Assembly: GCF_044704955.1 (NCBI RefSeq)
Contig: NC_091982.1
Coordinates: 235,166,001-235,230,000, forward strand
Reading direction: 5' to 3'
Source of the DNA: Pristiophorus japonicus
Lineage: Eukaryota
DNA: 64,000 nucleotides
Position numbers and translations under genes: made by a program. Below, in pieces: positions 4,164 to 51,745 of the stretch (positions are counted from its first letter, which is position 1; every line of letters starts with the position of its first letter). Below the pieces are notes generated by a model. That model was not told the origin of the DNA, made no database searches, and worked only from the letters and a program-made list of their open reading frames with translations.

Positions 4164-5510
4164 GGGGGGTGTAGGGGGGGAAAGAGAGAGTAGGGGAGAG
4201 AGTATAGGGGAGAGAGAGAGAGAGAGAGAGAGGAAGGATGTAGGGGAGAGAGAGAGAGAGAGAGATTGTGTAGAGGAGAGAGGGGGGGTGTAGGGGGGAG
4301 AGAGAGAGATAGAGAGAGAGAGAGAGTAGGGGAGAGAGTGTAGGAGAGAGAGAGAGAGAGAGAGAGGAAGAAGGGGAGGGAGAGAGAGAGGGTGTGGGGG
4401 TGGAGAGAGAGATTGTGTAGGGGAGAGAGAGAGAGAGGGGGTGTAGGGGGGAGAGAGAGAGAGGGAGAGAGATAAAGATAGAGATAGAGAGNNNNNNNNN
4501 NNNNNNNNNNNNNNNNNNNNNNNNNNNNNNNNNNNNNNNNNNNNNNNNNNNNNNNNNNNNNNNNNNNNNNNNNNNNNNNNNNNNNNNNNNNNNNNNNNNN
4601 NNNNNNNNNNNNNNNNNNNNNNNNNNNNNNNNNNNNNNNNNNNNNNNNNNNNNNNNNNNNNNNNNNNNNNNNNNNNNNNNNNNNNNNNNNNNNNNNNNNN
4701 NNNNNNNNNNNNNNNNNNNNNNNNNNNNNNNNNAGAGAGTGAGNNNNNNNNNNNNNNNNNNNNNNNNNNNNNNNNNNNNNNNNNNNNNNNNNNNNNNNNN
4801 NNNNNNNNNNNNNNNNNNNNNNNNNNNNNNNNNNNNNNNNNNNNNNNNNNNNNNNNNNNNNNNNNNNNNNNNNNNNNNNNNNNNNGAATATAGGGGAAAG
4901 AGAGAGAGAGGGTGTAGGGGAAAAAGAGAGAGAGAGAGACAGAGAGAGGGTGTGGAGGGGCGAGAGAGCGAGCGAGAGAGATTGTATAGGGGGAGAGAGA
5001 CAGAGATAGAGGGTGTGTGGGGGGGGGTGGGGAGAGAGAGAGAGAGAGAGAGAATATAAGGGAAAAAGAGAGAGAGGGTGTGGGGGGGGGAGAGAGAGAG
5101 AGAGAGAGAGAGAGATTGTGTAGGGGAGAGAGAGAGTGAGAGTGTGTAGGGGAGAGAGAGAGTGAGAGGGTGTAGGGAAAAGAGAGAGAGAGACAGAGAG
5201 AGAGAGGCGGTGGGGGGGGGAGAGAGAGAGATTGTGTAGGGGAGAGAGAGAGAGGGTGTAGGGGAAAGAGAGACAGAGAGAGAGAGAGGGAGGGAGGGTG
5301 TAGGTGAGAGCGAGAGAGAGAGGGAATAGGTGAGAGCGAGAGAGAGGGTGTAGGGCAGGGAGAGAGAGAGAGAGTGCAGGTGAGAGAGCGAGGGTGCAGG
5401 TGAGATAGAGAGAGAGAGAGAGGGTGTAGGGCAGAGAGAGTGAGAGAGAGAGAGAGAAAGAGAGAGTGAGTGTAGGGGAGAGAGAGAGAGAGAGAGGGTG
5501 TAGGGGAGAG
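4164..5510. repeat. GA-rich compound microsatellite with assembly gaps
   Basis: (GA)n runs with gtgtagggg spacers. N gaps at 3999-4163, 4492-4733 and 4744-4885. Confidence 0.95.
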
Positions 5511-5569
5511 TGCATACAGTGCACAGTGTCATTTACTAGCAGCAAATAACTGTCCGTCTCATTACTTAC

Positions 5570-5635
5570 ACAGTGTATCTGTTCAGCGATGAACTTCTGC
5601 AGCTTTCCCTTGTCGGTGAATTTAAAGAGCTGGAG
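5570..5635 (-). CDS. MINDY4B: MINDY4B exon 7 (LQLFKFTDKGKLQKFIAEQIHC)
   Basis: Acceptor atttttcctcag, donor TGT|gtaagt, 66 nt, phase 0/0. Matches the recalled segment [22 protein letters not shown]. Later exons were not found in the window. Confidence 0.9.
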
Positions 5636-6327
5636 CTGAGGAAAAATATGAAAAGTGTGAGGCAGTTTACACAGGCCACTCCAGAGAGACTTCCAGACTG
5701 ATTACAGACTGCCCATCAGAGATTTAGGGGAAAGTTTTCAAAAGCACCTTAGGGTAGACTTCTTGCAGGGGTTCTGCTGCTCTGCCTGGCAACCTTGTCG
5801 AGAGAGAGAAAGAAAGACTTACATTTATATAGCACCTTTCACGACCACCGGACGTCTCAAAGTGCTTCACAGCCAACTTTTGGAGTGTAGTCACTGTTGT
5901 ATTGTGGGAAACGCGGCAGCGAGCGAGCGCACAGCAAGCTCCCACACACAGCAATGTGATAATGACCAGATAACCTGGTTTTGTTATGTTGATTTTGCTA
6001 TGTCGATAAATACCCCGGGGAAATGGCGTAAGTAGCACCATGGCATGCGTTAACGACTGAACCCTGCTGTCGATACTTTCTCCGTTTCAGTGGGGTCAGC
6101 TATTCCCTTCAGCAACGTGAGCATCTTACTTTCACGGGAATTATTTCACTCTGCCCTATTTCTGCTTGTACGATAGCATAGCCCAGGGATTTAACGACAG
6201 CAGCCCCTTGTGAGCTGGACCAGACACTTCTATCTTCTGCATGTGTAGTTCTTCAATCTCTCTGAAGGTAGACCGAGCAAATACTTGATATGAATCTCGA
6301 AGGTTCTTTATTTCCTTGCAGGTTGAA

Positions 6328-6680: not shown

Positions 6681-7551
6681 CACACAGAACAACAGTTACA
6701 ATCAGATTCATTTATTTCCATCAAACAACTGAGTCATTATCACATCGCTGTTTGTGGGAGCTTGCTGTGTGCAAATTGGCTGCTGCGTTTCCCTCATTAC
6801 ACTTCAAAAAAAAAAGTACTTCATTGGCTGCAAAGCACTTTGGGACATCCGGTGGTCGCGAAAGGCGCTATATAAATGCAAGTCTTTCTTTTTTTTTATT
6901 GGACTGTCAAACTATCTTTAATTGACTTCAGAACTGTGGTTCAGAAGCCCTGTTTGAAACCTAATTTACCCCTACCAGCTCTACTGGTCTTAACGTCATA
7001 ATATCAAAATAACTAACACACTACACTGCCCCGCTTTAGTGAGTCATCTTGCTTGATTTAAAGTTACTTTTCCAATTCTTCTGTGCTCCATTCCATCCTT
7101 CTCACAGTCCCTTGCTGCCTGACTACCTCGAGCTTTTACAGCACTCTCTGTTTAAAACGTCTGACTCCAGTGTCAGCTTTTAGCCTAACTGACAACCCCA
7201 CAAGCAGAATTCACCAACCTAACTTGTCTATGGCTCCTGCTGATTTGAAATGAAAAGAGTTGAGACAGCTACAATGAATGTGAATGATGAAATCAACATC
7301 ACTAAAACTGATTATCTGGTCATTATCACATCACTGTTTGTGGGAGCTTGCTGTGCGCAAATTGGTTGCCGCATTTCCTACATTACAACAGTGACTACAG
7401 TTAAAAAAAATTGGCTGCAAAGCACTTTGGGACATCCGGTGGCCGTGAAAGGCGCTATATAAATGCAAATCTTTATTTTTTATTGGACTGTCAAACTATC
7501 TTTAATTGACCTCGGAACAATGGTTCAGAAGCCCTGTCTGAAACCTAATTT

Positions 7552-7895
7552 TTTTTTTTTTTTAAATTCGTAGCCAATCGTTTCCAATTCTTTGTCAAGT
7601 CACAAACGCCAGAGGTCACCCTGCACCAGTCAAGGATCACTCTGCGCCAATGCTCTTAGCCAAAAGGCCTAGAGCCACTGCACCGTTCCTGGAAGTACTG
7701 CAATACCAGGTTCGTGCCATGGAGGTGGATGGGTCAGGTCCCCCACACACCTCCGTGGAGGTGGATGGGTCAAGCCATCCCACCCACCTCCTGTTTACAA
7801 AAATGTAAGCATATACCTTCCTGACCAGGGAGAAACTACCCGGAGGTCATGGTGGCTGGTCAGGTTAGTTATGCAGATCTTAGCCAAAAGGCCGA
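7552..7895 (-). mobile_element. snRNA-derived (U2/U1 chimeric) SINE-like retroposon, SINEU-type
   Basis: Minus strand order: U2 5' end TCGGCCTTTTGGCTAAGATC, U1-like segment, U2 Sm site ATTTTTG, duplicated stem-loop III, stem-loop IV CCTGGTATTGCAGTACTTCCAGGAACGGTGCA, second U2 5' piece, unique tail, poly(A). 12-bp TSD gaaacctaattt at 7540-7551 and 7896-7907. Confidence 0.85.
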
Positions 7896-8287
7896 GAAAC
7901 CTAATTTATTCCTACCAGCTCTAGTGTCTTGTGAATTTAACCGCCTGGGAGCTAGGTTTAGCTCAATGGCAGCATGTTTCACATACATCGTACAGCAGAC
8001 TGGACTATGGTGAATAGGAAATCTGTCACAATTCAGATCATAGCTGTTATATTTTTAATAGCTAAAAGATGCGACAGGTCACTTTAAATTTGGTTATTGC
8101 TATCTTGCTCTTCAGAGATCAAAGAGGATACACATTACAGTCTGATATGCAAACTGACACTTCAAAGACGTTGTTCTGGTGCAAATACCTTTTGATTGCG
8201 GAGCCAAGTAGAAACCGCTTAAGCCATTCTTAATACTGAAATCTATCTAATTAAAGTCAAGCATGAGGCAACACATGCAGATATCCT

Positions 8288-9175
8288 GGGGGCTTGCACT
8301 GGGGCGATGGGGGGCTTGCACTGGGGCGATGGGGGGCTTGCACTGGGGCGAGGGGGGGCTTGCACTGGGGCGAGGGGGGGCTTGCACTGGGGCGAGGGGG
8401 GCTTGCACTGGGGTGAGGGGGGGCTTGCACTGGGGCGAGGAGGGCTGGCACTGGGGCGAGGAGGGCTGGCACTGGGGCGAGGAGGGCTTGCACTGGGGCG
8501 GGGAGGGCTTACACTGGGGCGAGGGGGCTTACACTGGGGCAAGGAGGGCTTGCACTGGGGCGAGGGGGGGCTTGCACTGGGGCGAGGGGGGCTTGCACTG
8601 GGGCGAGGAGGGCTTGCACTGGGTCATGGGGGGGCTTGCACTGGGGCGAGGAGGGCTTGCACTGGGGCGAGGGGGCTTGCACTGGGGTGAGGGGGCTTGC
8701 ACTGGGGCGAGGAGGGCTTGCACTGCGGCGAGGAGGCTTGCACTGGGGAAAGGGGGCTTGCACTGGGGCGAGGGGGCTTGCACTGGGGCGAGGGGGCTTG
8801 CACTGGGGTGAGGACGCTTGCACTGGGGTGAGGGGGTTCGCACTGGGGTGAGGGGGTTCGCACTGGGGTGAGGACGCTTGCACTGGGGTGAGGGGGTTCG
8901 CACTGGGGTGAGGGGGTTCGCACTGAGGCGAGGAGGCTTGCACTGGGGCGAGGGGGTTTGCACTGGGGTGAGGGGGCTTGCACTGGGGTGAGGGGGCTTG
9001 CACTGGGGTGAGGGGGCTTGCACTGGGGCGAGGGGGCTTGCACTGAGGCGAGGGGGCTTGCACTGGGGCGAGGAGGGCTTGCACTGGGGCGAGGAGAGCT
9101 TACACTGGGGTGAGGGGGCTTACACTGGAGCGAGGAGGGCTTGCACTGGGGCGAGGAGGGCTTGCACTGGGGCAA
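8288..9175. repeat. G-rich minisatellite, 20-22 bp unit (ggggcttgcactggggcgag[ga])
   Basis: About 40 tandem copies, directly visible. Confidence 0.95.
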
Positions 9176-9286
9176 GGGATGGTGGGCGGCGGGGGTGCGA
9201 GAGTTTCAGAAGCTATCACATCAATTTGATGATGTTGATTCACCTATGGGACGGAGCGACTGTTCTCCTGTAGTCCGACTTTTTTA

Positions 9287-33643: not shown

Positions 33644-36600
33644 GGGCTCAGGTTTCGGACCCCCGCTAGAACGACACACATCGGCGAGGTCCGCTTAATT
33701 TGTAGATCAGAAATTGCGCCGAATACTTACCTCGCGATTCTCCGATAGCTGTAGGCCTGTTTCCAGCTCGGCGCGGCGCAGCAGGAGCTGCTGGGGGGCG
33801 GAGCTACAGCCCTGCGCCAAAAACAGTGCTGGCAGCTGCGCGTATGCACAGTAGCTCCTGGCTCTCCCAGCGCATCCTGTCTCCGGGCGACGACCCTATC
33901 CCTAGCCGAAGGGACATAGAAACAAGGATAGACATAGAAAATAGGTGCAAGAGTAGGCCATTCGGCCCTTCGAGCCTGCACCGCCATTCAATGAGTTCAT
34001 GGCTGAACATGCAACTTCAGTACCCCATTCCTGCTTTCTCGCCATACCCCTTGATCCCCCTAGTACTAAGGACTACATCTAACTCCTTTTTGAATATATT
34101 TAGTGAATTGGCCTCAACAACTTTCTGTGGTAGAGAATTCCACAGGTTCACCACTCTCTGGGTGAAGAAGTTTCTCCTCATCTCGGTCCTAAATGGCTTA
34201 CCCCTTATCCTTAGACTGTGACCCCTGGTTCTGGACTTCCCCAACATCAGGAACATTCTTCCTGCATCTAACCTGTCTAAACCCGTCAGAATTTTAAATG
34301 TTTCTATGAGATCCCCTCTCATTCTTCTGAACTCCAGCGAATACAAGCCCAGTTGATCCAGTCTTTCTTGATATGTCAGTCCCGCCATCCCGTGAATCAG
34401 TCTGGTGAACCTTCGCTGCACTCCCTCAATAGCAAGAATGTCCTTCCTCAAGTTAGGAGACCAAAACTGTACACAATACTCCAGGTGTGGCTTCACCAAG
34501 GCCCTGTACAACTGTAGCAACACCTCCCTGCCCCTGTACTCAAATCCCCTCGCTATGAAGGCCAACATGCCATTTGCTTTCTTAACTGCCTGCTGTACCT
34601 GCATGCCAACCTTCAATGACTGATGTACCATTACGCCCAGGTCTCTTTGCACTTCCCCTTTTCCTAATCTGTCACTATTCAGATAATAGCCTGTCTTTCT
34701 GTTTTTACCACCAAAGTGGATAACCTCACATTTATCCACATTATACTTCATCTGCCATGCATTTGCCCACTCACCGAACCTATCCAAGTCACTCTGCAGC
34801 CTCATAGCATCCTCCTCGCAGCTCACACTGCCACCCAACTTAGTGTCATCCGCAAATTTGGAGATACTACATTTAATCCCCTCGTCCAAATCATTAATGT
34901 ACAATGTAAACAGCTGGGGCCCCAGCACAGAACCTTGCGGTACCCCACTAGTCACTGTCTGCCACTCTGAAAAGTACCCATTTAATCCTACTCTTTGCTT
35001 CCTGTCTGACAACCAGTTCTCAATCCATGTCAGCACACTACCCCCAATCCCATGTGCTTTAACTTTGCACATTAATCTCTTGTGTGGGACCTTGTCGAAA
35101 GCCTTCTGAAAGTCCAAATATACCACATCAACTGGTTCTCGCTTGTCCACTCTACTGGAAACATCCTCAAAAAATTCCAGAAGATTTGTCAAGCATGATT
35201 TCCCTTTCACAAATCCATGCTGACTTGGACCTATCATGTCACCTCTTTCCAAATGCGCTGCTTTGACATCCTTAATAATTGATTCCATCATTTTACCCAC
35301 TTCTGATGTCAGGCTGACCGATCTATAATTCCCTGTTTTCTCTCTCCCTCCTTTTTTAAAAAGTGGGGTTACATTGGCTACCCTCCACTCCATAGGAGCT
35401 GATCCAGAGACTAAGGAATGTTGGAAAATGACTGTAAATACATCCGCTATTTCCAAGGCTACCTCCTTAAGTACTCTGGGATGCAGTCCATCAGGCCCTG
35501 GGGATTTATCGGCCTTCAATCCCATCAATTTCCCCAACATAATTTCCCGACTAATAAGGATTTCCCTCAGTTCCTCCTCCTTACTAGACCTTCTGACCCC
35601 ATTTTATATCCGGAAGGTTGTTTGTGTCCTCCTTAGTGAATACCGAACCAAAGTACTTGTTCAATTGGTCTACCATTTCTTTGTTCCCCGTTGTGACTTC
35701 CCCTGATTCTGACTGCAGGGGACCTACGTTTGTCTTTACTAACCTTTTTCTCTTTACATATCTATAGAAACTTTTGCAGTCCGTCTTAATGTTCCCTGCA
35801 AGCTTCCTCTCATACTCTATTTTCCCTGCCCTAATCAAACCCTTTGTCCTCCTCTGCTGAGTTCTAAATTTCTCCCAGCCCCCAGGTTCACTGCTATTTC
35901 TGGCCAATTTGTATGCCACTTCCTTGGCTTTAATACTATCCCTGATTTCCCTTGATAGCCACGGTTGAGCCACCTTCCCTTTTTTATTTTTACACCAGAC
36001 AGGGATGTACAATTGTTCTAGTTCATCCATGCGGTCTCTAAATGTCTGCCATTGCCTATCCACAGTCAACCACTTAAGTATCATTCGCCAATCTATCCTA
36101 GCCAATTCACGCCTCATACCTTCAAAGTTACCCTTCTTTAAGTTCTGGACCATGGTCTCTGAATTAACTGTTTCATTCTCCATCCTAATGTAGAATTCCA
36201 CCATATTATGGTCACTCTTCCCCAAGGGGCCTCGCACAACGAGATTGCTAATTAATCCTCTCTCATTACACAACACCCAGTCTAAAATGGCCTCCCCCCT
36301 AGTTGGTTCCTCGACATATTGGTCTCGAAAACCATCCCTTATGCACTCCAGGAAATCCTCCTCCACCGTATTGCTTCCAGTTTGGTTAGCCCAATCTATA
36401 TGCATATTAAAGTCACCCATGATAACTGCTACACCTTTATTGCATGCACCCCTAATTTCCTGTTTGATACCCTCCCCAACATCACTACTACTGTTTGGAG
36501 GTCTGTACACAAGTCCCACTAACGTTTTTTGCCCTTTGGTGTTCTGCAGCTCTACCATATAGATTCCACATCATCCAAGCTAATGTCCTTCCTAACTATT

Positions 36601-45002: not shown

Positions 45003-48000
45003 TGTGATGTATGTAGCACACAAATCACTGACTCCACACTGTCTGGTGTTGATCTAACTGCTGTGACCTTAGTCCTTTATTGAACAGCTCCAGAGTGCTC
45101 CACAGGTGTGGTGGCCAGCCTTTTATACTGCCTCGTGCAGGTACTTTCAGGTCTCCCACCACAGCGCCCTCTGTGGTGCACCATTGTACTTATCATACAT
45201 TTAACGTACCAGAGCAACACACAACATCATTGCTCCCCCCAACCCCCACCGAGTTCTAAAAGCCGTTGCTTGAATCCCCTAAATCGAAAAACACATTAAC
45301 CCATTGGTAATGTTAGTCACAGATCCACGTCCCTGAATTTAAACACAGTGACCATTCAGCATTGAAATATTACTCTTGTCGTAATTCGCAATTCATGTCC
45401 ATTATTTTAAACACAGTGACCACCCAGCATTAAAATATTATTTCTTGTCATAAATCCATCATCCTACATTCACATAGCACACTTAGACTCGCTCTAGCCT
45501 TACAAAAGTCCAAAAGTATTTGATACGTCCTTACTATACAGTATAAATGCACATGAGGCCCATGCTTGAGAGAAGGTCAGTCTGTGACCTGTCCTTTATT
45601 TCATAGCACTCAAGTGATGGAAGTGGGTGGAGCTTCCCCTTTTATATCTGAAGGTCTAGGTTAGGAGTGTCTCCCACAAGTTCACCACCTAGTGGTCAGT
45701 GTTCTCACAGTGTACAACTTCGGTCAGATTATACATGGGTTACAATGCTGGTTGAATACATGACATCACCTCCCCCCCCAAAGTCTTATTGGGATCACAG
45801 GTTGAGTCTCTCTGGTGGTTTACGCTTCCTTGTAGAGCGCCTGAGTTGGGGCTCCGATTGTTGGGTGCTGGCCTGAATGTCTGCTGTTTGCGGTGCCTCA
45901 GGCCTGTCCGGACTGCCCACAGTGACTGGGCTCTCCTCCCTTTGGTTCCTGTGTTCGGTCACCTGTGGTGGAGTGAACTCTACATTGTGTTCTTCCTCTG
46001 CTTCTTCTATGGGGTTGCTGAACCTCCTTTTTGTTTGATCCACATGTTTGCGGCAGATTTGTCCATTGGTAACTTTAACTACCAGAATCCTATTTCCCTC
46101 TTTGGCAACCACAGTGCCTGCGAGCCATTTGGGCCCTGCAGCTTAGTTGAGGACAAAAACAGGGTCATTTACATCAATACATCACGCCCTCGCATTCCTG
46201 TCATGGTAGTCATATTGTGACTGGCGCCTGCTCTCGACAATTTCTTTCATGGTGGAGTGTATAAGGGATAACCGGGTTTTGAGCGTCCTTTTCATTAGCA
46301 GCTCTGCGGGTGGAACCCCTGTGAGCGAGTGTGGTCTGGATCTGTAGGCCAACAGGAGGCGTGATAAGCGGCATTGGAGGGAATCCCCTTGGATTCTGAG
46401 CATCCCCTGTTTGATTATGTGCACTGCTCGTTCTGCCTGGCCGTTTGAGGCCGGCTTGAACGGTGCCGTTCTAACATGGTTAATTCCATTGCCTGCCATG
46501 AAGTCCTGGAATTCATTGCTTGTGAAGCATGGGCCATTGTCGCTGACCAAGCTGTCTGGTAGACCGTGGGCGGCGAACATTGCCCGTAGACTTTCTACCG
46601 TGGCAGAGGATGTGCTTGAATTTAAAATGTCACACCCGATCCATTTGGAGTAGGCATCTACTACAACCAAAAACATTTTTCCCATGAAAGGACCTGCGTA
46701 GTCCACATGGATGCATGACCAAGGCTTGGCGGGCCATGGCCAGGGGCTAAGGGGGGCTTCCCTGGGCGCATTGCCCAGCTGGGCACACGTGTTGCACCTG
46801 CAAACACAAAGTTCCAGATCTGCGTCTATCCCCGGCCACCAAACGTGTGACCTGGCAATTGCCTTCATCGTGACAATGCCCGGGTGCTCATTGTGGAGTT
46901 CTCTGATGAACACCTCTCTGCCCATCTGGGGCATGACTACGCGGTTTCCCCACAGTAGGCAATCGGCCTGAATCGAGAGTTCATTCTTGCGCCTGTGAAA
47001 TGGTTTAAATTTTTCAGGGCATGCCCTGTACGTGGCTGTCCAGTCCCCATTCAGGACACATTTCTTGACTAGAAACAATAGCGGGTCTTTATTTGTCCAG
47101 ACTTTAATCTGACGGGCTGTCACGGGTGAGCCTTCGCTTCCGAAAGCTTCAACAGCCATGACCATCTCAGCAGCATGTTCGGTAGCCCCCTCAGTGGTGG
47201 CTAGTGGGAGCCTGCTGAGTGCATCGGTGCAGTTTTCGGTGCCCGGTCTATGCCGAATTGTGTCGTCATAGGCGGCTAACGTGAGTGCCCACCTCTGTAT
47301 GCGGGCCGATGCGTTTGCATTTATGGCCTTGTTGTCGGCCAAAAGGGACGTTAGGGGTTTGTGATCTGTCTCCAGCTCAAATTTCCTGCCAAACAGGTAC
47401 TGGTGCATTTTCTTTACCGCATATACACATGCGAGCGCCTCCTTTTCTACCATCCCGTAGCCCCTTTCTGCCTGGGACAGACTTCTGGAGGCATAAGCTA
47501 CCGGCTGTAACTGACCCTTGGCATTGACATGCTGCAACACACACCCGACACCATAGGACGACGCATCGCACGTTAACACAAGTTTCTTACATGGGTCATA
47601 TAGTGTTAATAGATTGTCGGAACATAACAAATTGCATGCTCTATTCCCCCTCGACCCATTCGCGACCTTTGTGTAGCGGCTCTAGCAGCGTGCTCAATTT
47701 GGGAAGAAAGTTACCAAAATAGTTCAGGAGCCCCAGGAATGAATGCAGCTCCGTCGTGTTACGGGGTCTGGGTGCTCTCTGGATCGCTTCCGTCTTGGAC
47801 GCAGTAGGGCTGATCCCGCCTGCTGCTACCCTCATCCCCATGAATTCTACCTCTGGAGCTAGGAAGACGCACTTCGCCTTTTTCAGTCGCAGACCTACCC
47901 GGTCCAGTCTGCGTAGCACCTCCTCCAGGTTGTGGAGGTGTTCTTCAGTATCGTAACCCGTAATGAGGATGTCGTCCTGAAAAACCACCGTCCCTGGAAT

Positions 48001-51000
48001 CGACTTGAGGAGGCTTTCCATATTTCGTTGGAAGATCGCGGCGGCCGAGCGAATCCCGAACAGACATCTGTTGTACTCAAACAACCCCTTGTGTGTCGTG
48101 ATGGTGGTCAGCTTCTTCGACTCACTCGCCAGCTCCTGGGTCATGTAAGCTGAGGTCAGGTCCAATTTTGAAAAAAGTTTGCCACCGGATAGCATCGCAA
48201 AGAGGTCCTCCGCTCTCGGTAGCGGGTACTGGTCTTGGAGTGACACCCGATTGATGGTGGCCTTGTAATCGCCACATATCCTGACCAACCCATCCGCCTT
48301 GAGTACTGGCACAATCGGGCTCGCACAGTCACTGAATTCGACTGGCGAGATGATGCCTTCCCTCAGCAGGAGGTCCAATTTGTCTTCTATCTTTTCCCGC
48401 ATCACGTACGGCACCGCTCTGGCCTTGTGGTGTACTGGCCTGGCGTCCGGGTTTATGTGAATGCCGGGTTGAAATAATGAGTCAAATTTGTCCAGGATCT
48501 GTGAGCATGATACTCGCTCCACAGAGGAAATTGCATTGACATCGTCCCATTTCCAGTTCATGACAGCAAGCCAACTCCTCCCCAGCAGTGCGGGACCGTC
48601 CCCTGGGACAATCCAGAGTGGCAGTCTGTTCTCTGAATCTTTGTGGGTCACGACTACCGTGGCGCTGCCTAGCACTGGAATGATCTGCTTTGTGTAAGTC
48701 CGTAGCTGTGCATCAATCGGCGATAATTTTGGCCTCCTGGCCTTGGACGCCCACAACTTTTCGAACGGTTTGATACCCATCAGGGACTGGCTGGCCCCCG
48801 TGTCTAGCTCCATTGACACTGGGATGCCATTGAGGAGCACTTTCATCATTATCGGTGGCGTCCTGGTGTATGAACTGTATACGTGCTCCACATGAACTCG
48901 CTGAACTTCAGCTTCCAGCGATTTCCCCCAGCGTTCATTTCTGCAATTTCTGCAAGTATTTTGCTCACCTCTGCAAACTCCGGCTGAATGTTTGCCTCCA
49001 CGCCTCCAGCATGAGCTGCTGTTTGAAACAAAAGGTCCGTTGCCAGTCGATCGTCCCTGACTGCCCCTGTTATTGCCCTTGAGTGCGCCATTAACAGTTA
49101 TTGATGGCCCCATTACTGGCCGCATTGTCCCTTGCAATGGCGTGAATCGCTGTTCAGCTTGCCATTGTCTCTGTCGAGCTCCCCCTCTGGGTTCAACTAC
49201 ATGTTGGGGCATGCCCGACTGCCCTTGTCTGCCTGGAGAACTGTGTGCTGCTTTAACAATGTTGAATCTCTGTCCCAATCATTCCTTAACACAGTACCAC
49301 TCGTCTGTTCTGCTAGTGGCCATGCTCGCGTGGTTTAAATCCCAGTTTTTTGTCGCCATTGATACGTTCTTACTATACAGTATAAATGCACACGAGGCCC
49401 ATGCTTGAGAGAAGGTCATTCTGTGATCTGTCCTTTATTTCATTGCACTCAAGTGATGGAAATGGGTGGAGCTTCCCCTTTTATATCTCGGTTAGGAGTG
49501 TCTCCCACAAGTTCACCACCTAGTGGTCAGTGTTCTCACAGTGTACAACTTCGGTCAGATTATACATGGGTTACAATGCTGGTTGAATACATGACAGAAT
49601 TTATGTGGGGACCGCAGTGGTGTGAGGCCCTTTTAAGACGCCCGGGAGCATTTCCCTTTTAAGACGCCATCTTGTGGCTCCCACGAGGCTTCCATTGGGC
49701 GCCCCCATCTTAGGTGTTCAGCTGGCCTGGAAATAAGAAGAAGGAACACGGAAGGAGGGAAAGGGAAACACAGAAGGTGGGGAGAGGGAATTTTGCAGTG
49801 TTTTTGGGAAAGGTTTCAGGCATTTGTCCAAGATCCTCTTCCTCTGGCGTTGCTGGAAATATTCGATGCTGGCGCTCTCAAACTCAGCGCGGCATTTTGT
49901 TAACAGAATGAGAAACAACAAACATCAGCGGCAGCGCCAGTTTGCTTGCTGCCGCGCCCGCCGTTGCCGCAGTCTCCATTCCCACCGTGGCCGCCCCTCC
50001 TGCGGCCACCTCTCCTGCTGCCTACGTGGCCGCCACCATCGCGGCCGCTGCCGCCGCCAGACTGTCAGCTGCGTGGGTCCGCCGGCCATCGATGGACCGC
50101 AGCGCCCCGCCAGCCCACACCCCAGCAATGGGCCCGCACCTGTAACCTTGAGTGGAGGCTGAGGCTGCAGGATTGCTTGGGGCCAGGAGTTCTGGGCTAC
50201 TGCTGCAGCTCCAGCTCGGTTGGCGCTGCTCTTTGGAAACCCGGGGAGCAGCAGTCTGTGGAGGAGTGAAGAGGTCTTCCCAGCTCCCACGGACGTTTCC
50301 CATCCATCTTCTGCCGAGTAGCATTGGCCCATCGCCTGCAATGACCCATAAAGGTAAACCGTGCGTCTCGCCCCCGTGAGATACCTGTACATCCGGTCTG
50401 CCGAGAACAGGTATTAGTTCCCTGGTGTAAGTACGCAGCTTTGCCGTGACCGGGACCAGCTTGGGTCGTGGAGCTGGGTTACCCCACAGTTTATCAAAAG
50501 TTCTCTGACTCATCAACGACGGATCCGATCCCGTATCCACTGCCATACTCACTGGGACTCCGTCAATTTTTACTTCCATTATCACTGGGGGCGAATCATC
50601 GGTGCACGTATACAGTCCCAACACCTCATCTTCTTCTGCCTGCTCCTCGCTGAACAGTGGATCATCCCCCATCACCTCAGCCACACGGTGAGTCCGATTT
50701 CTTTTACACATACGCTGAAGGTGGCCTTTCAGGTGGCAGGTATTGCACGTATACTCTGCAAACCTGCACCGGTGAGCCCCATGGCTTTCTCCGCAGTGCC
50801 AGCATGGTGCTGCTTGATTGGCCCCCCTCAGCGGACTCTGAGCTCCAGGACCCCGAGGTCCATGCTCTCTGCCCCGGGCAGAGCCACGTTCTGCAGTTTT
50901 GTCCGTGGTGGGCGCTATCCTGTGGACAGCGCCTGCCGGGTTCGAGACTGTGTGGATCATTTGCTTGGTGCTACACGTCGAGGTCATATATGCCCGGCTG

Positions 51001-51745
51001 ATGGTGATGGCCTTTGTCAGGGTGACTGTGGGTTCCGTGGCTAGCAGCTTGTGAAGGAGGCCCTCGTGGCCAATCCCCATGACGAAAACGTCCTGCAGCA
51101 CCTCGTCAAGGTGTGCCCCAAAATCACACGGCGCCGCGAGTCTCCTGAGGTCTGCAGCATATTTGGTGACATCCTGGCCCTCGGGTCTGCAGTGATGGTA
51201 AAATTTGTATCTGGCCGTGAGGATGCTCTCCTTCGGTTTCAACTGGTCACGAATGAGTGCGACCAGCTCCTCATATGACTTGTCCCTGGCGCTCGCGAGT
51301 GCCAGCAAATCTCTGACGAGTAAACCTCATCGCCACAACTGGAAAGCAATATCGCCTTACGCTTCTCTCTCAGTGCGTTCGTGTCCTCCGTCAAGTCATT
51401 TGCTGTGAAGTAGTACTCGAGCCTTTCTGTAAAGGCCTCCCAATCATTGCCCACGGTAAAATCCTTTAGTGAGCCCAGAGTAGCCATGGTTGCGTGGAGT
51501 TCGTCCGCTTCCTCGTCGCCAATATGATGTATGTAGCACACAAATCACTGACTCCACACAGTCTGGTGTTGATCTAACTGCTGTGACCTTAGTCCTTTAT
51601 TGAACAGCTCCAGAGTGCTCCCAGGTGTGGTGGCCAGCCTTTTATACTGCCTCGTGCAGGTACTTTCAGGTCTCCCACCACAGCGCCCTCTGTGGTGCAC
51701 CATTGTACTTATCATACATTTAATGTACCAGAGCAATACACAACA
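45003..51745 (-). mobile_element. Outer Ty3/Gypsy LTR element (gag-protease only), inserted in a CR1 3' end
   Basis: LTRs 45003-45226 and 51523-51745; 5-bp TSD atccc (44998-45002, 51746-51750); PBS TGGCGACGAGG (tRNA-Ser type); PPT next to 45227; gag MATLGSLKDF...CCHC knuckles (one frameshift near 51320); protease VDTGS; no RT or integrase of its own. Confidence 0.92.
45521..49596 (-). mobile_element. Inner Ty3/Gypsy LTR element (gag largely deleted; protease-RT-RNaseH-integrase)
   Basis: LTRs 45521-45765 and 49360-49596; TSD gtatt/gaatt; PBS TGGCGAC; ORF 47641..49278 (LDTGA, FQDDIL) and ORF 46182..47630 (CDASSYG, HHCC, SDNG, SNGQAER). Confidence 0.95.

Follow-up and report, generated by a model that had tools for sequence, protein, structure and literature searches.

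A U2-U1-U2 chimeric retroposon family in Pristiophorus japonicus that may be transcribed from invaded U2 genes and copied by a Keno-type LINE

We analyzed a window of 64,000 nucleotides from Pristiophorus japonicus (assembly GCF_044704955.1, contig NC_091982.1, positions 235,166,001 to 235,230,000), within which a short retroposon copy lies on the minus strand (Table 1). The element is non-coding, about 340 nt long plus poly(A) and under 500 bp in all. Its U1 and U2 parts were recognized by comparison with the genome's own U1 and U2 genes. Elsewhere in the window there are Gypsy-type protease, RNase H and integrase frames (46185-47681 and 50025-51326, minus strand) and a reverse transcriptase frame, which we take from its appearance to be CR1-like (34020-35603, minus strand). 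Minisatellite-like low complexity at 8223-9205 and 4885-5701 generates spurious long open frames.

Table 1. The U2-U1-U2 chimeric retroposon copy and its parts, in the order of the strand that encodes it, with window positions.
Feature	Position	Strand	Basis and remarks
Whole retroposon copy, including both TSDs	7540..7907	-	U2-U1-U2 chimera
TSD, 5' copy, 12 bp	7896..7907	-	Exact match with 7540-7551; last 3 bases overlap the element start (microhomology)
U2 nt 6-28 (stem-loop I)	7876..7898	-	Same as the U2 gene of the genome
U1-derived segment, U1 nt ~3-57, decayed; enclosed by a 9-bp stem	7819..7872	-	U1 comparison and MFE fold
U2 Sm site remnant, without consensus flanks	7798..7805	-	Alignment to the U2 Sm site; variants across subfamilies
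U2 stem-loop III-like hairpin, copy 1	7757..7791	-	U2 comparison and fold
U2 stem-loop III-like hairpin, copy 2 (duplicate)	7718..7754	-	U2 comparison and fold
U2 nt 153-186 (stem-loop IV)	7678..7711	-	32/34 identity to the major U2 gene; no subfamily-diagnostic changes
Second U2 stem-loop I fragment	7654..7673	-	Also present in the U2-only sister family A
Tail	7563..7651	-	Homologous to the family A tail; 3' part diagnostic of subfamily B2
Poly(A) tract of 15 nt, with the three leading A of the TSD counted in	7549..7563	-	Read from the sequence
TSD, 3' copy	7540..7551	-	Exact match with 7896-7907

The initial annotation described this copy as a U2/U1-chimeric, SINE-like retroposon, and most of the anatomy that it proposed is borne out. 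Both U2 stem-loops I, the near-perfect U2 stem-loop IV, the unique tail, the poly(A) and the exact 12-bp TSD all lie where it had placed them, and the MFE fold of the window copy contains the tandemly duplicated stem-loop III-like hairpins, stem-loop IV and the 9-bp stem around the U1 part. The U1-derived segment stands in place of U2 nt 29 to ~95, a stretch that includes the branch-point pairing sequence. Loss of that sequence had also been proposed, and the Rfam U2 model, run as had been recommended, matches 7904-7673 on the minus strand (46.6 bits, E 9e-8) with the branch-point region absent. The window copy lacks U2 nt 1-5, and full-length family members begin at U2 nt 1. No AATAAA occurs in the tail.

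That the element belongs to a multicopy, SINEU-like family had been predicted from this single copy, and many genomic copies with a common structure confirm it. The genome search that had been called for returned 1,893 candidates; the 40 that were scored are 98-100% identical and lie on many chromosomes. Family B, as we name the U2-U1-U2 chimeric retroposon family here, has at least 5,796 copies, counted genome-wide as exact matches of one internal 20-mer. The window copy represents subfamily B2, which has 211 exact tail matches in the genome; its sister B3, 94.5% identical to it, has 202. A single B2 copy is matched without a difference by 37 of 80 near-full-length ones and with one difference by 25, and B2 is a young subfamily. 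The other subfamilies are B1, which is U1-like and older, and B4, whose head is U2 1-38. TSDs of at least 7 bp flank 78 of the 148 copies examined (median 13 bp among non-tandem copies), whereas 48 are solo copies with no TSD detected and the remainder are tandem units. The 5' ends of 85 of 114 copies, sampled in chromosome order, fall within nt 1-15.

Tandem stacks with a common TSD place these subfamilies in a series. All 25 mixed pairs of classified units run B3>B2>B4>B1 from 5' to 3', and one unclassified unit lies 5' of a B2. The most diverged units sit 3', so B3 appears to be the youngest subfamily and B2 the preceding wave. Hundreds of near-identical copies with common internal junctions and diagnostic changes point to source elements rather than to independent template switches. 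The sister family A consists of an internally deleted U2, a second U2 head and a tail homologous to that of family B, an arrangement that resembles SINEU-3. Family A is probably the ancestor of family B.

The proposed U1 origin of the central segment is marginal in the window copy and clear in an older relative. In the window copy, both the 5' splice-site pairing sequence and loop I are altered. When its U1 segment was shuffled, 38 of 3000 trials reached the segment's score against the genome's U1, as did 240 of 1000 when the whole element was shuffled. The Rfam U1 comparison, suggested alongside that for U2, came out negative for the window element and for its U1 segment; U2 alone was matched, plus one sub-threshold match at chance level. 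Subfamily B1, on the other hand, is identical to U1 nt 3-57 at 45 of 55 positions, and none of 5000 shuffles reaches its score. Because this older subfamily aligns so clearly to U1, we regard the chimera as real.

The Sm site is not conserved. The consensus is RAU4-6GR, and the ATTTTTG that had been read as an Sm site is present, but B2 and B3 lack both flanking purines and the A is missing in 21 of 22 B1 copies. Family B thus departs from the consensus of Sm-class snRNAs. Since the site is not retained, assembly of the RNA with Sm proteins into the snRNP-like particle that had been envisaged is doubtful, although stem-loop IV does lie in a stretch free of diagnostic changes. This stretch spans alignment columns 161-268 (about 109 columns, comprising the second hairpin arm, stem-loop IV and the second stem-loop I). 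It contains none of the 21 runs of subfamily-diagnostic changes, and a comparable gap arose in 32 of 20000 random placements. The pattern suggests constraint, perhaps through binding of U2B''/U2A' or of the LINE Keno; recombination among copies could be an alternative cause.

The expectation of a Tx1-type rather than a CR1 partner is upheld by a Keno-type LINE with targets in common with the SINE, and that of a cartilaginous-fish host by the relatives of its ORF1. What the first reading overlooked is this U2-gene-specific LINE as the partner, together with the family members that lie inside U2 genes behind the upstream region. The candidate partner is 5.7 kb long and encodes an ORF1 of 569 aa (ZCCHC3-type plus zinc-knuckle) and an ORF2 of 1145 aa (APE, RT and zf-RVT), with the Pfam domains PF03372, PF00078, PF13966 and PF00098. 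Keno has been described as an APE-type U2-targeting family (PMC4640811), and the 3' flank of the LINE found here is the Keno U2 target published in PMC6136364. We assign it to the Keno type by its domains and its U2 target site; its protein matches carry no Keno label, and one of them is the Takifugu reverse transcriptase BAD04856.1, at 39% identity. ORF1 has eight matching relatives, and the five that are named to taxon are all sharks or rays. The Keno 3' motif occurs 126 times in the genome. Family A retains the nt-38 target; both Keno and family B insert into family A, and family A also enters U2 genes.

Target sites were compared after setting aside 13 of the 78 TSD sites, all at one Gypsy pol position, which leaves 65 dispersed sites. 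Compared with U2 positions -12 to -2 they score 3.94 of 11, against a background of 2.85 (0 of 20000 resamples, z 6.0), and shifting the U2 target by 1-6 nt gives 2.35-3.29. B2 sites alone reach 4.0/11 (0 of 10000 resamples). The dispersed sites have no downstream preference, and the site of the window copy agrees with the U2 target in no more than 2 of 11 positions. Six of 30 Keno 3' ends coincide in insertion point with SINE copies; four different repeats are involved, B2 copies take part in three of these, and a control shifted by 40 nt gave none. By eye, 10 of the 30 Keno 3' ends run into SINE sequence. The TTT|A site read in the initial annotation fits the window copy but is not general: TT|AAAA is found at 0 of the 65 dispersed sites, which rules out an L1-type target for the SINE and with it the L1-like TTTT/A preference inferred at first.

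Both the SINE and Keno cluster at the excluded position, a single exact antisense hot spot where the RNase H region of a Gypsy-type pol ends. It holds 13 of the 78 SINE TSD sites, yet its match with the U2 target is only 2/11. At G000:C4:75,020,700-75,034,300, two Keno copies, separated by a truncated SINE, occupy Gypsy-type target sites, and an age-ordered stack of about ten SINE units lies 3.5 kb beyond the pair. A nearly full-length Keno is found in the same Gypsy-site region as a stack of SINEs.

The tail gave no comparable link to the LINE. The proposed alignment to Tx1-type LINE UTRs yielded no significant similarity between the SINE tail and the Keno UTRs, and beyond the U2 head and the poly(A) nothing detectable is held in common. 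Recognition of the SINE RNA would therefore run through the poly(A) or through U2 structure. Derivation of the tail from the Keno 5' or 3' UTR was also considered; 6 of 1000 mononucleotide shuffles seemed to favor it, and it failed with dinucleotide shuffles and with other subfamilies (22-554 of 1000).

Could another L1/Tx1 family be the main mobilizer, with the sharing of sites with Keno incidental? The lack of a common tail would fit, as would the low U2-target match of the Gypsy site, and the partner survey was confined to Keno among the LINE families of this genome. Set against this are the insertion of the SINE exactly at U2 nt 38, the bias of its dispersed sites toward U2-like sequence, the occupation of the Gypsy site and of three further SINE sites by Keno itself, and the absence of TT|AAAA from all 65 sites. 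We judge a different mobilizer to be improbable, and take Keno as the candidate partner in what follows.

The U2 genes themselves are heavily invaded. Units of the major U2 array are about 765 bp long, and of 148 that we classified, 116 hold an intact U2, 17 a B3 copy fused at +1 (which need not equal 17 loci, since unplaced array contigs may be redundant), 13 a Keno and 2 a U2 variant, which leaves 30 of the 148 sampled units disrupted by one of the two mobile elements. Eleven of the 13 Keno units are fused at U2 +1, and two after a longer piece of U2. The B3 units read, in order, upstream region, U2 1-28, SINE body, poly(A) and U2 38-191, with U2 29-37 lost. The upstream motif is intact in 17 of 17, and U2 resumes at nt 38 in all 16 with a readable 3' junction. 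One seamless SINE fusion at +1 occurs in a second U2 class, which lies on another chromosome and has a different upstream region. Genome-wide, we counted 51 insertions in which poly(A) runs directly into nt 38 of true U2 sequence: 29 of Keno, thus inserted 37 nt into U2 genes, 20 of B3, one of an older B element and one of family A. B2 accounts for none of the 51 and has no promoter fusion either; under the model proposed below, its source must be lost or unassembled.

One end of the array (G000:C19:69,620,000-69,726,000) comprises 17 units, of which 11 are Keno, some of them in tandem and with intact ORFs, 5 are SINE and 1 is intact. Keno carries there a variant of U2 1-44 of its own, by which it is fused at U2 +1, and may thus also use the U2 promoter. 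At G000:C19:69,632,000 the 3' end of a Keno abuts nt 38 of a B3 copy, the equivalent of the U2 target, which suggests that upstream U2 sequence sets the cut. The second U2 class (G000:C9:111.0 Mb and 113.4-113.8 Mb) forms an 18-21-kb repeat; behind each of its U2 genes lie the truncated 3' end of an old Keno and a piece of U2 (38-191), both amplified with the array.

Only three distinct promoter-fused B3 variants exist, and one of them is found in 15 array units. From nt 31 on, 12 of 41 dispersed B3 copies are identical to a promoter-fused variant; the variants have 1, 2 and 9 such copies, and none is without. The other 29 dispersed copies differ from all fused variants. Identity between fused and dispersed copies gives no direction, and array copies could be daughters of dispersed ones. 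No dispersed U2 38-191 transduced 3' by B elements was found: 7 of 7 matches, and the 21 B-type junctions among the 51, lie within U2 clusters.

The arrangement of the fused units also bears on transcription. We infer promoter activity of the upstream region from its position ahead of the 116 intact U2 units. No convincing PSE is shared between U1 and the upstream region of the major U2 array, and a PSE-like motif of the C9 class was recognized purely by visual inspection. Within the element, T4 or T5 runs at three places are evidence against Pol III. The promoter end is absent from all 26 dispersed copies that extend to nt 1, as is any 5' extension common to them other than a shared target site, in agreement with transcripts that begin at U2 +1. 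If family B were a classical SINE driven by Pol III from within, mostly near full-length copies would be expected, as is the case here (85 of 114). But the full-length head has T4 at nt 14-17, there are two further T runs, U1 and U2 genes have external promoters (PMC4494074), and Rfam finds no tRNA-, 5S- or 7SL-type head, so that this reading is hardly credible.

A more serious competitor retains Keno as the mobilizer and places the masters among dispersed copies that run on flanking host or transposon promoters, as Kojima proposed for crocodilian SINEU (PMC4494074), with the copies in U2 genes as passive daughters. It would accommodate the absence of B2 from assembled U2 genes and the 29 of 41 dispersed B3 copies without an identical fused variant, and many copies do sit at one Gypsy site or downstream of Keno, where read-through is possible. 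Read-through should leave shared 5' extensions, however, and 0 of the 26 copies has one; in addition, all three fused variants have identical dispersed copies. Dispersed masters are thus an unlikely explanation, if the least unlikely of those weighed here against transcription from invaded U2 genes.

Alternatively, the fused units may be variant snRNA genes maintained by the host, with an RNA that enters an snRNP-like particle and dispersed copies that arise as by-product retrocopies. The stretch free of all 21 diagnostic change runs and the spread of one variant through 15 array units would be expected of such genes. Yet the Sm site is not kept, the pairing sequences of both U1 and U2 are altered or absent, one subfamily has rapidly replaced another, and the units carry poly(A) followed by U2 38-191, the scar of an insertion. 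Host maintenance therefore seems very improbable to us.

We return to transcription from invaded U2 genes, which suggests the following cycle. The Keno endonuclease would nick U2 genes at nt 37/38, and its reverse transcriptase would prime on the SINE poly(A). The U2 1-28 head of the SINE takes the place of target nt 1-37, so that the insert begins exactly at +1; this structure is seen in the array, and the process that generates it would be a docking of the head. Transcription of the invaded gene would run to the U2 3' end signal and give a SINE-poly(A)-U2(38-191) RNA. Keno would mobilize this RNA in trans and insert it mostly off target, into degenerate U2-like sites. Such off-target spread may have generated thousands of promoterless, dead-end copies, the window copy among them. 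Turnover of the U2 tandem array would both gain and purge source units, and could account for the successive subfamilies B1, B4, B2 and B3.

On sequence grounds, we consider it probable that the window element is a dispersed copy of a high-copy chimera that is copied by Keno and transcribed by Pol II from the U2 promoters of invaded genes. Somewhat less firmly, we lean toward a broader reading, in which family B is a promoterless Pol II SINE that lives by invading snRNA genes: the U2 head docks it at +1 of a U2 gene at Keno's site, expression comes from the U2 promoter, and the succession of subfamilies is timed by array turnover. SINEU in general, the crocodilian elements included, would then owe their origin and transcription to this cycle.

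With family B, which appears to have been active recently, snRNA-derived SINEs extend to a second vertebrate class. One genome contains its candidate source genes, an intact LINE as candidate partner and subfamilies in dated succession, and this combination makes the question of SINEU transcription directly testable. If true, the model in which Keno inserts, the U2 promoter transcribes and Keno spreads would answer the question that Kojima raised. It points to a way of becoming a SINE through capture of a Pol II promoter in an snRNA array, comparable to that of the R2 SIDEs in rDNA. The disrupted array units also show a three-way contest in the U2 locus.

So, how does family B compare with known systems? 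Crocodilian SINEU-1, -2 and -3 were described by Kojima in 2015 (PMC4494074), in an account that places none outside crocodilians, calls their transcription an open question, notes T runs as an argument against Pol III and groups their partner, Tx1-Mar, with Keno. As published there, SINEU elements share with family B their U1/U2 parts, recurrent exchange of heads, partial duplications, poly(A), TSDs, tandem copies that sandwich a TSD, T runs that exclude Pol III and a Tx1 partner near Keno. Of the features that define SINEU, family B has the U1/U2 head, the multicopy occurrence with common structure, a length below 500 bp, the poly(A) and the TSD, and mobilization by a Tx1-clade LINE is suggested through common targets. 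Like SINEU-3, family A combines an internally deleted U2 with a tail, and family B has a U1-to-U2 switch as in SINEU-2. Judged by the published description, family B differs from SINEU in its cartilaginous-fish host, in a partner that is of the U2-specific Keno type rather than Tx1-Mar, and in its copies fused at +1 within U2 genes, which do not figure in the main text of PMC4494074. We assume that the two originated independently. In the literature searched, as distinct from Repbase and Dfam, we found no report of an snRNA-derived SINE in cartilaginous fish and none of a Keno-dependent SINE; the relevant passages of PMC5381603, PMC12054243, PMC7245038 and PMC5786205 cite snRNA-headed SINEs solely via the crocodilian paper.

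Relative to Keno as published (PMC4640811, PMC6136364), the partner has the APE and RT domains and the U2 3' target, and the SINE uses the identical site but is non-coding. Retropseudogenes of snRNAs and U6/L1-type chimeric retrocopies likewise combine snRNA sequence, poly(A) and a TSD, but family B has hundreds of near-identical copies with common junctions and diagnostic changes. A parallel to the model proposed here is offered by the R2 SIDEs of Drosophila, which, as described in PMC3414825, are non-autonomous, sit at the site of their partner in a tandem RNA-gene array and are expressed from the transcription unit of the host gene. R2 SIDEs derive from R2/R1 by internal deletion, have a ribozyme and lie in Pol I 28S genes (PMC3414825), whereas family B is built from snRNA pieces; that family B is itself a SIDE, in the sense of an internally deleted LINE, is ruled out by the lack of a significant match to the Keno UTRs. 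Unlike R2 SIDEs, family B starts at the host +1 and so would need no 5' cleavage, and it has spread into thousands of off-target copies.
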